Shown: positions 7,853 to 63,639 of the stretch, piece by piece | Position numbering within the stretch: position 1 is the stretch's first letter | Layout of the letters: every line of letters begins with the position of its first letter | Assembly: GCA_963749075.1 (NCBI GenBank) | Contig: CAVVLJ010000023.1 | Coordinates: 1-64,000 of the forward strand | DNA length: 64,000 bases | Reading direction: 5' to 3' | DNA from: an uncultured Pseudomonadota bacterium | Lineage (GTDB): Bacteria > Pseudomonadota > Alphaproteobacteria > JACZXZ01 | Program-made: the position numbers and the translations under genes | The notes under the pieces: model-generated | Seen by the model: only the letters and a program-made list of their open reading frames with translations | What the model was told of the DNA's origin: nothing | Database searches by the model: none

Positions 7853-12115
<4,263 letters not shown>

Positions 12116-45414: not shown

Positions 45415-46947
<1,533 letters not shown>

Positions 46948-46979
46948 GGGGACATTACCTATCGATAGCCACGATAGGA

Positions 46980-47028
46980 GCCCTCATCCTGAGGAGGCCG
47001 TGAAGCGGCCGTCTCGAAGGATGAGGGC
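46980..47028 (+). repeat. Left palindromic repeat flanking the GIY-YIG gene
   Basis: GCCCTCATCCTGAGGAGGCCGTGAAGCGGCCGTCTCGAAGGATGAGGGC. Confidence 0.9.
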
Positions 47029-47060
47029 GGGAACGCGGAGGCCATTACGGGTGTTGGCGA

Positions 47061-47359
47061 ATGGCTGCCTATCTCTATATTCTCCGCTGCAGCGACGGTT
47101 CCTACTACGTGGCAGTACCCGAACCAGCCTCGAGATACGGGTCGCCGAGCATAATGCCGGCCGCTTCGGCGGCTATACCAAGCGGCGGAGGCCCGTCGCG
47201 CTGATGTTCCATCAGGAATTCGGCCGCATCGAGGACGCGATCGCGGCCGAGCGTCAGGTCAAGGGCTGGCGACGGGAGAAGAAAGAGGCTTTGATGCGAG
47301 GGCAGTTCGCGGCGTTGCCTGCCCTTGCCAAGCGTGGTGCGTCCAAAGGGCGGTCGTGA
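47061..47359 (+). CDS. Small GIY-YIG nuclease (YhbQ/UPF0213-like) with a 1-nt deletion at ~47110 (pseudogene or sequence error)
   Basis: Manual translation from ATG 47061: MAAYLYILRCSDGSYYV, continuing in the 47000..47359 frame as GSTRTSLEIRVAEHNAG..YTKRRRPV..AIAAERQVKGWRREKKEAL. Confidence 0.85.
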
Positions 47360-47373
47360 GAAATCCCGACCAC

Positions 47374-47424
47374 GCCCTCGTCCTTCGAGACGCGATCCGT
47401 TGGATCGCTCCTCAGGACGAGGGC
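47374..47424 (-). repeat. Right palindromic repeat (inverted copy) flanking the GIY-YIG gene
   Basis: Reverse complement is GCCCTCGTCCTGAGGAGCGATCCAACGGATCGCGTCTCGAAGGACGAGGGC. Confidence 0.9.
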
Positions 47425-47474
47425 TTGGGCCTCACGGCACAGGAGTCGTCGCCCTCTAATGAGGGAGTCGGCAA

Positions 47475-47837
47475 ATGACGAGCGCAGACCCGGCCAAGAT
47501 CACCGCGTACCACGCCCACGTCTACTACAAGGACGCGGCCGAACGCGCGTTCGCGGCCGAACTCCGCGAGGAGGTGGCACGCCGCTTCCAGGCAACGCTC
47601 GGGCGCTGGCACGATGTGCCGGTCGGGCCGCACCCGATTGCCATGTACCAGATCGCCTTTGCCACCGTGGAGTTCGCCCGCCTCGTCCCCTGGCTCGCGC
47701 TCAACCACGGCGGCCTCTCGGTGCTCATCCACCCGGAGACCGGCGACGACCCGACCGACCATTCCGAGCACGCCCTCTGGCTCGGCGAGAAGCTCCCCCT
47801 CGACATCGAGTACCTGCGCCGCCTCGGCCGCAGATGA
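47475..47837 (+). CDS. DOPA 4,5-dioxygenase family protein
   Basis: YHAHVYY, VGPHP, LSVLIHPETG, HALWLG. Confidence 0.9.
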   Translation: MTSADPAKITAYHAHVYYKDAAERAFAAELREEVARRFQATLGRWHDVPVGPHPIAMYQIAFATVEFARLVPWLALNHGGLSVLIHPETGDDPTDHSEHALWLGEKLPLDIEYLRRLGRR

Positions 47838-47872
47838 GCCGGGATGGCAAAGCGGTTGAGCCCTCTCGGAGC

Positions 47873-47892
47873 CCTATGGTATCAACTATAGG
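47873..47892. promoter_or_regulatory. Palindromic operator upstream of the PLP-enzyme operon
   Basis: CCTATGGT-ATCA-ACTATAGG (one mismatch), AT-rich, overlapping a likely -10 region. Confidence 0.45.
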
Positions 47893-47936
47893 ACGATGAC
47901 AAGATAGACCGATCGCCGGGGACCTCCGCCAACACC

Positions 47937-62685: not shown

Positions 62686-63639
62686 TCAGGCCTGGCGCGT
62701 GCGCGGGTCGAGCAGGCCGTAGCTCACGTCGACCGCGAGGTTGGCCAGCACGACGACGAACGTGATGAGCAGTACCACCGCCTGGACCACGGGATAATCG
62801 CGGCTCAGGATGCCGTCGACGAGGAGGCGGCCCAAGCCCGGCACGCCGAAGATCGTCTCGGTCACCACGGCGCCGCTGAAGAGCGTGCCGAGCTGGATAC
62901 CGAGGACGGTCACCACCGGCAGCATGGCGTTCCTGAAAGCGTGGCGCAGGATGACCCGGCCTTCCCGAAGGCCCTTGGCGCGCGCGGTCTTGATGTAGGC
63001 GTGCCCGAGCACGTCGGCGAAGCTCGAGCGGCTCTGCCGCATGGCGATGGCGCCGACGCCCAGGCTCAAGGTCACCGCCGGCATGAGCGAGGTCCTGAAG
63101 CTTTCCCACGGGTCGGCGAAGAGGGAGACGTAGCCCGAGGGCGGCAGCCAGTGCCACTTGAGCGCCACGAAGTAGATGAGAACGCCGCCCACGAGGAAGT
63201 AGGGCATGGCGGCGCCCGCCAAGGCCGCGACCGTGCCGAGCCAGTCCTTCCAGGAGTTGGGGCTCGCCGCGGCGAGGACGCCGAGCGGGATGCCTATGAG
63301 GAGGGCCAAGAGCCAGGCGCTGAGGCCGATCTGCACCGTCGGCAGGATGCGCGGCTCCATGAGATGCCAGACGCGCTCGCGGCTCTGGATGGAGCGCCCG
63401 AAGTCGCCGGAGAGCAGCTTCGCCATCCAGCCGGCGTATTGCGCGTAGAGCGGCCGGTCGAGGCCGCTCTCGGCGCGCAGATCCGCGACGGTCTCGGCGC
63501 TGACCTCGCCCTGCGCCTGCCCCAGCATCAGCATGACCGGGTCGCCGGGGAGGAGGCGCATGAGAAAGAAGACGATGATCGAGGTCAGGAAGATGACCGG
63601 GATGGTGGCGAGAAGACGCCTGAGGATATATGCCGCCAT
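62686..63639 (-). CDS. Peptide/nickel ABC permease (DppB/OppB-like)
   Basis: YILRRLL, GLDRPLYAQY, YIKTARAKGL, RDYPVVQA. Confidence 0.94.
   Translation of the reverse strand: MAAYILRRLLATIPVIFLTSIIVFFLMRLLPGDPVMLMLGQAQGEVSAETVADLRAESGLDRPLYAQYAGWMAKLLSGDFGRSIQSRERVWHLMEPRILPTVQIGLSAWLLALLIGIPLGVLAAASPNSWKDWLGTVAALAGAAMPYFLVGGVLIYFVALKWHWLPPSGYVSLFADPWESFRTSLMPAVTLSLGVGAIAMRQSRSSFADVLGHAYIKTARAKGLREGRVILRHAFRNAMLPVVTVLGIQLGTLFSGAVVTETIFGVPGLGRLLVDGILSRDYPVVQAVVLLITFVVVLANLAVDVSYGLLDPRTRQA

Follow-up and report, generated by a model that had tools for sequence, protein, structure and literature searches.

What does a small nuclease gene do between two inverted copies of a hairpin repeat? The question is raised by a stretch of 64,000 nucleotides (the window) from an uncultured Pseudomonadota bacterium (assembly GCA_963749075.1, contig CAVVLJ010000023.1, positions 1 to 64,000, forward strand), in which a GIY-YIG nuclease gene is bracketed by two palindromes in opposite orientation. 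A previous interpretation made from the DNA letters (the sequence-only reading) had proposed that the nuclease recognises and spreads its own hairpin family, and had stated that no mechanism for this was established. The latter premise is outdated, because Chenal et al. (Nat Commun 2025, PMC11893778) describe hairpin-directed cleavage of single-stranded DNA (ssDNA) by small GIY-YIG proteins, named Ssn. We found that gene and hairpin are specifically associated in relatives of the window locus, which is probably an Ssn-like hairpin-directed system with largely vertical inheritance, as in RAYT loci. A small GIY-YIG nuclease with flanking hairpin repeats is a kind of locus known since 2025; the lineage and the hairpin described here are outside the published motif.

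The nuclease gene is split between two reading frames (Table 1). In the first frame the family hidden Markov model (HMM) aligned over positions 1-19 and in the second frame over positions 18-96, and it found no other gene copy in the 64-kb window. The sequence-only reading had described a gene of about 99 codons with a one-nucleotide deletion; the Pfam domain, the frame switch and alignment with two orthologous loci (L002 and L003) bore this out. At the deletion site the window reads GTGGC, L002 GTGGGC and L003 GTAGGA, so that one base is missing from the window gene, whose break falls between Y16 and G18. Together the two frames preserve the catalytic tyrosines and glutamate, as well as all 37 invariant columns of a 20-sequence family alignment (read by eye). 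Since these columns are all kept, the break is recent or an assembly error in a short G run, and the window copy has either been inactivated lately or contains a one-base assembly mistake. Other broken copies were the second copies of L020 and L057, L045, L077 and a two-piece plasmid match (H2). As the majority are from metagenome-assembled genomes, assembly error is possible for them too. L045 (10040-10065) has an independent 2-nucleotide (nt) loss at the same YYV/G codons as the 1-nt loss of the window, which could point to a hotspot or to an assembly error that recurs at the short G run.

Both hairpins were recovered with the sequences and orientations that had been given for them. The left hairpin consists of a basal stem, GCCCTCATCCTGAGG / TCTCGAAGGATGAGGGC, with a GA bulge and an A/G mismatch, and an apical stem-loop, GGCCG-TGAAG-CGGCC. 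The right hairpin has the same basal stem, with G-C replacing an A-T pair, and a different apical stem-loop, GCGATCC-AAC-GGATCGC. The outer arms (left CTCATCC/GGATGAG, right CTCGTCC/GGACGAG) thus carry the compensatory A-T to G-C change that the sequence-only reading had pointed out. It had also described an asymmetric, invariant core with a recognition bulge; the bulge is there, but the core is mostly paired, GAGG with TCTC (one G-T pair), leaving the A/G mismatch and the 2-nt GA bulge. Folded as ssDNA, the left hairpin gave -20.9 kcal/mol (z -5.9) and the right one -25.6 kcal/mol (z -8.6). The pattern TCCTGAGGAG-N8-30-GTCTCGAAGGA had exactly two matches in the 64 kb, both flanking the gene, and none in 100 shuffles. 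A hairpin covariance model was trained on 43 copies, including the left hairpin and excluding the right one, and was run with scan filters off. The two flanking hairpins scored highest (Table 1) and the third-best score in the window was 18.2 bits. This weak match, with a second one on the other strand (14.3 bits), lies in a GC-rich palindrome at 10421-10459, which is probably a generic hairpin. The module is tightly spaced, the gaps being only 32 nt from left hairpin to ATG and 14 nt from stop codon to right hairpin.

Table 1. Features at the GIY-YIG locus, in window positions
Feature	Position	Strand	Evidence and remarks
GIY-YIG gene, whole	47061-47359	+	99 codons; ATG 47061, stop 47357-47359
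GIY-YIG codons 1-17 (MAAYLYILRCSDGSYYV), first frame	47061..47111	+	translation; family HMM positions 1-19, E-value (E) 4.4e-7
Frameshift site, one base missing	47109..47113	+	alignments with orthologous loci; HMM frame switch
GIY-YIG codons 18-99 and stop, second frame (GSTRTSLEIRVAEHNAG...ERQVKGWRREKKEAL...)	47111..47359	+	PF01541 (GIY-YIG), sole Pfam domain, E 8.2e-8; family HMM 144 bits
Left hairpin repeat, long form	46980-47028	+	49 nt; pattern, fold, covariance model 63 bits
Right hairpin repeat, long form, inverted	47374-47424	-	51 nt; pattern, fold, covariance model 46.7 bits
Short dyad CCTATCG-N7-CGATAGG	46960..46982	.	fold -5.9 kcal/mol, z -4.4; between pccB stop and left hairpin
pccB-like carboxyltransferase gene	ends 46947	+	directly upstream of module
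DOPA 4,5-dioxygenase family gene	47475-47837	+	downstream of module

A homolog search with the C-terminal frame returned 729 database proteins, the best of them 84% identical, and the 120 listed homologs were 94-144 amino acids long. Loci were taken from one scan of species-representative genomes, which found at least 516 relatives; the best 80 were kept and correspond to 78 loci with 84 gene copies, every locus having been selected for carrying the gene. Hairpins were defined by a general rule (arm-TGAG-N2-48-TCGAA-arm, at least 4 of 5 inner arm bases complementary), which gave 281 matches in the 78 loci versus 4 in reversed-sequence controls. A stricter rule (at least 6 of 7 arm pairs) gave 122 matches versus 1 in the control and was dropped, as it missed many copies with an A/C mismatch.

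Hairpins were strongly concentrated beside the gene: 164 lay within 150 nt of it (3.45/kb) and 117 elsewhere in the same loci (0.095/kb), a 36-fold difference in density. At least one hairpin was found within 150 nt of 75 of the 84 gene copies, a check on homologs that the sequence-only reading had suggested, and 46 copies had hairpins on both sides; nine had none within this distance. Within 500 nt, the distance used in the available text of PMC11893778, the numbers rose to 76 and 49 (58%), respectively. The arrangement seen in the window (+ upstream, - downstream) was the commonest, with 33 of the 46 two-sided copies, the others being 8 -+, 3 -- and 2 ++. A strict long-form motif had 113 matches, 71 of them within 150 nt (1.49/kb) and 42 elsewhere (0.034/kb), and flanked 33 of the 84 gene copies. 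Loci without strict matches bear a shorter relative of the hairpin, CCTCATCC-TGAGC[C/T]TGTCGAA-GGATGAGG. Judging by record titles, hairpin-bearing loci come from Alphaproteobacteria and also from Chloroflexi, Spirochaetota, relatives of Bacteroidota and others. Dispersed copies were present in 47 of the 78 loci, and the distant hairpins were often inverted pairs (67 -+, 30 +-, 16 ++, 6 --). This GIY-YIG lineage and its structured hairpin are a specific, conserved pairing.

The hairpins also reach into protein databases. C-terminal tails of homologs (...PSRR...SSG, ...PSFET...SSG) and the N-terminal extension of one homolog (...HPEERP...RLEGR...) are translated flanking hairpins, which thereby account for spurious extensions of these proteins at both termini. 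Hairpin-derived tails in the database open reading frames (ORFs) P0004, P0009, P0013, P0016, P0048, P0054 and P0077 are annotation artefacts of this type. When the hairpin class (short or long variants) was mapped on the protein tree it changed 22 times, compared to 47.6 times in shuffles (0 of 200 as low). Hairpin class therefore tracks the protein tree, though kinship alone can produce such clustering.

The 113 distinct long-form copies were then compared position by position. At the pair that closes the core, 98 copies have C-G and 12 have G-C, and the pair after it is T-A in 83, C-G in 16 and T-G in 8. The position beyond that shows an A/C mismatch in 56 copies and an A-T pair in 51, so that many copies have a shorter outer stem than those of the window. 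Perfect apical stems of 4 bp or more are formed by the insert in 79 of the 113 copies, versus 47 of 2260 shuffles; the stem arms come in 49 different sequences, and the loops are mostly GCA or GAA. Covariation was tested on 43 copies of equal length. Here 75.4% of cells pair versus 67.6% in shuffles (0 of 500 as high). The covariation score was 0.238; shuffles gave 0.108, none of the 500 being as high, and sliding the pairing gave 0.064-0.104. Four apical pairs vary on both sides, each in 9-14 sequences, and the outermost five pairs are unpaired in most of these copies. The part conserved in sequence is C[C/G]TCA[T/C]CC-TGAG...GTC(TC)GAA-GG..., the commonest 5' arms being CTCATCC (80 copies) and GTCATCC (38), while the apical stem is conserved only as structure. 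The suspected selection on hairpin structure was thus confirmed: purifying selection acts on the basal sequence and on the apical structure, a combination that fits a protein reading the basal part.

The closest precedent is the Ssn system, for which we follow the available text of Chenal et al. (PMC11893778) throughout. Neisseria SsnA, a 94-amino-acid single-domain GIY-YIG protein, binds a hairpin repeat, NTS, and cleaves on its upstream side, on ssDNA only and on one strand only; in the same text Ssn proteins are inactive on double-stranded DNA, RNA and the reverse strand. Names of constructs and primers indicate that Y6, Y17 and E64 were mutated in SsnA. Membership of the Ssn group was defined by cd10448 as the top CDD match and by blastp E<1e-10 to Neisseria SsnA (CAX49033.1). 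Homologs in the cd10448 clade are flanked by Ssn-related motifs (SRM), with at least one in 71% and both sides occupied in 42%, and the published pattern is HGTCWYN(0-2)YYVSBRHN(0-5)WNVSBRGN(0-2)RNCYNB. Azospirillum lipoferum 4B is among the 29 genomes that define the motif. The NTS-ssnA-NTS unit was likened by its authors to an insertion sequence, to IS200/IS605 and to repetitive extragenic palindrome (REP)/RAYT loci.

Both systems have a single-domain GIY-YIG protein of about 95-100 amino acids and a gene bracketed by its own hairpin repeats of 20-50 nt, copies of which are also dispersed. The repeats begin with C[G/C]TCAT, and the Azospirillum SRM start (CGTCATCCCCGCG...) resembles the first bases of the window hairpin family. 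The catalytic residues align as well: in a BLASTP comparison of the homolog P0003 with Azospirillum Ssn, the GIY-YIG tyrosines and E64 stood opposite matching residues, and hhalign agreed. Two-sided flanking within 500 nt was similarly or more frequent here (58%) compared with the 42% reported for Ssn/SRM. The differences lie in the protein cluster, which is separate, and in the hairpin, which is not matched by the SRM pattern and has a bulged, conserved basal stem topped either by a loop of 13 nt or by an inserted apical stem-loop that varies freely. Within the window the SRM pattern had one match (63589-63618), at chance level (0.77 expected per shuffle), and both hairpins were unmatched; the Azospirillum Ssn gene, used as a positive control, had four. 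This canonical Ssn-type gene (L079, 2855-3471, on plasmid AZO_p3 of A. lipoferum 4B) has SRM pairs to its left and right and is located between sufB and sufC, where it looks like an insertion into the suf operon. In the literature searched, Chenal et al. alone describe GIY-YIG genes flanked by hairpin repeats (PMC11893778). No description of the present lineage with its hairpin was found in that literature, and GTCTCGAAGG or its complement was absent among the matches listed.

We compared the family with two reference sets, one composed of Azospirillum Ssn and its 120 best relatives (canonical Ssn) and the other of the 120 best relatives of B. subtilis YazA (UPF0213). Median scores of this family were 191 bits with its own HMM, 50 bits with the Ssn HMM and 65 bits with the UPF0213 HMM. 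With the same three models canonical Ssn proteins scored 47, 160 and 38 bits and UPF0213 proteins 61, 41 and 156 bits. Individual members ranged over 144-210 bits on their own model, versus 34-60 bits on the Ssn HMM and 33-78 bits on the UPF0213 HMM, and UPF0213 proteins reached 48-70 bits on the model of this family. Profile-profile alignment by hhalign gave E 5.7e-25 for this family and UPF0213, 1.2e-18 for this family and Ssn, and 1e-14 for Ssn and UPF0213. P0003 shares 38% identity (46.6 bits) with the SRM-flanked Azospirillum Ssn and 41% (62.4 bits) with YazA, and the nearest solved structures are UPF0213 proteins (PDB 1zg2, BH0048, E 4e-12; 1ywl, EF2693, E 2.5e-10). In a quick tree (85 rows, 93 columns, many forks unresolved) seven canonical Ssn rows stood apart with 99% support, and YazA was placed on a long branch among hairpin-less members. 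By these HMM, hhalign, identity, structure and tree comparisons, the family is a distinct lineage at least as close to UPF0213, its best outside profile match, as to canonical Ssn.

Three proteins in the sample (L069, L071 and L078) score near or above their family score with the UPF0213 HMM and have no flanking hairpin. The SRM pattern had no match at yazA (one record, between trmNF and rsmI), whose flanks were not scanned for the TGAG...TCGAA hairpin. An NCBIfam scan of three family proteins gave no match. Unlike the I-TevI-type GIY-YIG homing endonucleases, the protein described here has no separate, joined DNA-binding domain, its 99 codons encoding one domain.

These observations suggest a widespread two-part system, in which a single-domain GIY-YIG nuclease of about 95-110 amino acids would act on a cognate REP-like DNA hairpin that brackets its gene in inverted orientation and is also dispersed, often as inverted pairs. 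By analogy with Ssn, we infer that the protein binds the hairpin once the DNA is single-stranded. It would read the basal stem C[C/G]TCATCC-TGAG ... GTC(TC)GAA-GGATGAGG together with the bulge or loop, tolerating any apical stem, and would cut the single strand beside the hairpin. If cutting is upstream, as in Ssn, inverted flanking copies would direct cuts to opposite strands just outside each module end. Such cuts would be compatible with excision or copying of the unit, and the nuclease may in this way have a role in spreading the hairpins. A further-reaching version is possible, though we hold it only tentatively: a second GIY-YIG lineage near UPF0213 may have been paired, independently or ancestrally, with a hairpin of its own, as a unit of about 400-450 bp that duplicates whole and whose nuclease propagates or maintains REP-like repeats without an HUH transposase.

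Several points weigh against an Ssn-like function. The SRM pattern was found within 500 nt of 0 of the 84 gene copies. The family may lie outside the published Ssn clade, as the profile scores favour UPF0213/YazA (65 and 61 versus 50 and 47 bits); no hairpin partners are known for UPF0213 proteins. Cleavage in this lineage is predicted by analogy with Ssn, and the frameshifted window copy may do nothing. The hairpins could also act as RNA. Finally, 31 of the 78 related loci carry no dispersed hairpin copy, and the remaining ~63.5 kb of the window hold no further copy either, so that no dispersed target was seen in the scanned part of this genome, the window.

Synteny bears on how the module is inherited. 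The pccB gene is directly upstream of the nuclease gene in the window, L002 and L003 (95% and 84% amino acid identity). L002 also shares the two genes downstream in the window, including the DOPA dioxygenase gene, and its protein is sister to the window protein in the tree. Downstream, the window and L002 have orthologous hairpins that are almost the same, even in the apical stem; upstream, the apical stem varies among the three loci. As L002 and L003 carry the gene after the same pccB, the module was inherited vertically at this junction, and in the window lineage it looks more like a RAYT/REP-type system that has been domesticated than like an active insertion sequence. Across the whole sample, ten groups of loci have close neighbouring genes in common and any neighbour is shared by 45 of 3081 locus pairs, so that the module is vertical over short distances and found in differing contexts over long ones. 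Vertical conservation, which the sequence-only reading had set against its own proposal, is thus partly seen. The specific linkage of nuclease and hairpin that it proposed stands, and the mobility that it proposed is putative, the gene also following pccB in two relatives.

The strongest competing explanation, which is the REPtron-like element with a non-HUH nuclease of the sequence-only reading, is an autonomous mobile element, a hairpin-gene-hairpin unit of ~440 bp that is cut at its own ends and moves or copies itself, and solo hairpins in trans. Two gene copies occur in 6 of the 78 loci, and in three of these the paralog homology stops within ~25 nt of the outer hairpin ends (L016, 9929-10347 versus hairpins at 9931-10345, 76% identical; L020, 9919-10347, 77% identical; L066, 9920-10371, 85% identical and inverted). 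These boundaries favour a discrete unit. The L016 and L020 duplication is probably old, as their paralogs are only 76-77% identical and have the same layout with a shared intervening gene. The variation of contexts between lineages and the recurrence of broken copies (the window, the second copies of L020 and L057, L045, L077 and H2) would suit an element of this kind, as would the canonical Ssn gene between sufB and sufC; set against them are the position after pccB, kept in the window, L002 and L003, and the nine further locus groups that share close neighbouring genes. The module ends are inverted repeats, reaching 10-15 nt past the hairpin in L022 and L024, but no target-site duplication was found in 20 units with the + / - arrangement. 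None is visible at the window locus, as had been noted before. Nor has an empty site or an excision product come to light, though no search aimed at either was made. GIY-YIG enzymes hydrolyse DNA and are not known to catalyse strand transfer. We consider such an element unlikely.

Some of these loci have further features. In L016 (7606-10347) and L020 (9919-12704), which belong to different Pelagibius genomes, two modules lie ~2.3 kb apart with the same intervening gene, and the second module copy of L020 is frameshifted. The end inverted repeat that runs past the hairpin arms is located at 9890-9900 / 10350-10360 in L022 and at ~9850 / ~10330 in L024, where the repeated element seems to carry an extra tail.

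It is considerably less probable that the hairpins act on expression of the gene itself, at the RNA or DNA level (as stabiliser, terminator or operator), and that the nuclease has an unrelated, UPF0213-like role. The tight spacing of the module and the closeness of the family to UPF0213/YazA would agree with this, but the 117 hairpins more than 150 nt from any gene copy, commonly in inverted pairs, would not. Neither hairpin of the window is followed by a T-run or coincides with a hit of the terminator scan, and an Rfam scan of 46500-47900 at E<=1 gave no match. The promoter and terminator scan produced a single weak promoter-like site (47054-47081, overlapping the ATG) and a single terminator-like site, within the end of pccB on the minus strand. 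Coincidence, meaning a generic intergenic REP family beside a small gene, was already disfavoured and is scarcely credible: REP-like repeats do favour intergenic DNA (available text of PMC3733652), but this would hardly give a 36-fold density excess beside the gene, a hairpin within 500 nt of 76 of 84 copies in loci that span several phyla by record title, or a 64-kb window whose sole two hairpin copies flank the gene.

The locus can also be compared with other hairpin systems. In RAYT (TnpA-REP) loci, or REPtrons, inverted REP-like hairpins likewise flank a nuclease gene, dispersed copies are often inverted pairs, and inheritance is largely vertical among close relatives. These loci differ in their enzyme, an HUH/Y1 transposase where a GIY-YIG protein is found here, and in the repeat tag, GTAG versus C[C/G]TC. 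Dispersal of REPtron type was seen in the 47 related loci mentioned above and not elsewhere in the window. IS200/IS605 elements use an HUH Y1 transposase, and both of their end hairpins are on the same strand. These elements and the module have in common a hairpin at each end, the lack of a target-site duplication and a logic based on ssDNA; opposite-strand hairpins and the GIY-YIG enzyme set the module apart. Another resemblance is to the CGTC-tagged REPs, which are mostly alphaproteobacterial, mostly inverted dimers and have no dedicated transposase in the available text of Di Nocera et al. (2013, PMC3733652). These families are described there with a CGTC, TGTC or CCTC tag, a stem of 8-9 bp whose first bases are AT, a loop of 4-5 nt and a tail reading CCA. 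The present hairpin is similar in its 5' tag (CGTC or CCTC) followed by a stem starting with AT, in its mainly alphaproteobacterial distribution and in its frequent inverted dimers; it differs in the bulged stem and in the 13-nt loop or whole extra stem-loop, and its tail does not fit. Of five short hairpin substrings, none was present in the main text of PMC3733652.

If the proposed system is real, hairpin-guided ssDNA nucleases would not be confined to the published Ssn/SRM pairing, and a separate GIY-YIG lineage would use a different, modular recognition hairpin. At E<=1e-10 to one member, the family counts 1,553 representative clusters, a number that may include neighbouring small GIY-YIG families. 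It would provide a candidate enzyme for a repeat that is very common in Alphaproteobacteria and often mistranslated into the tails of ORFs; related CGTC-type repeats were left without an enzyme in the available text of the 2013 survey (PMC3733652). Additional orthogonal enzyme-site pairs, with new ssDNA cutting specificity, would become available for ssDNA tools. The way in which non-HUH nucleases maintain REP-like repeat populations would become a broader question.

Two minor features were noted next to these modules. The first is the dyad at the left end of the window module (Table 1). Its existence, reported by the sequence-only reading, is supported by the fold, but its conservation is not: it is not kept in L002 or L003, where the alignment places a hairpin-family-like copy at that position, and in L002 extra outer hairpin partners are found there. 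The dyad shows no similarity to the copy that replaces it, and is probably not part of the gene-hairpin system. The second is seen in L004 (9252-10530) and L006 (10001-11265), which have a common upstream gene ending ...YVKNQGLGFEVPYLL..., a candidate restriction-type enzyme, we suspect. By ORF translation, the GIY-YIG module is on opposite sides of an MNT-HEPN-like gene in the two loci. As either gene could have moved, these loci were not counted for module mobility. The MNT-HEPN-like gene is intact in L004 and broken in L006, with bracketing hairpin pairs, and the two layouts suggest rearrangement at hairpins.

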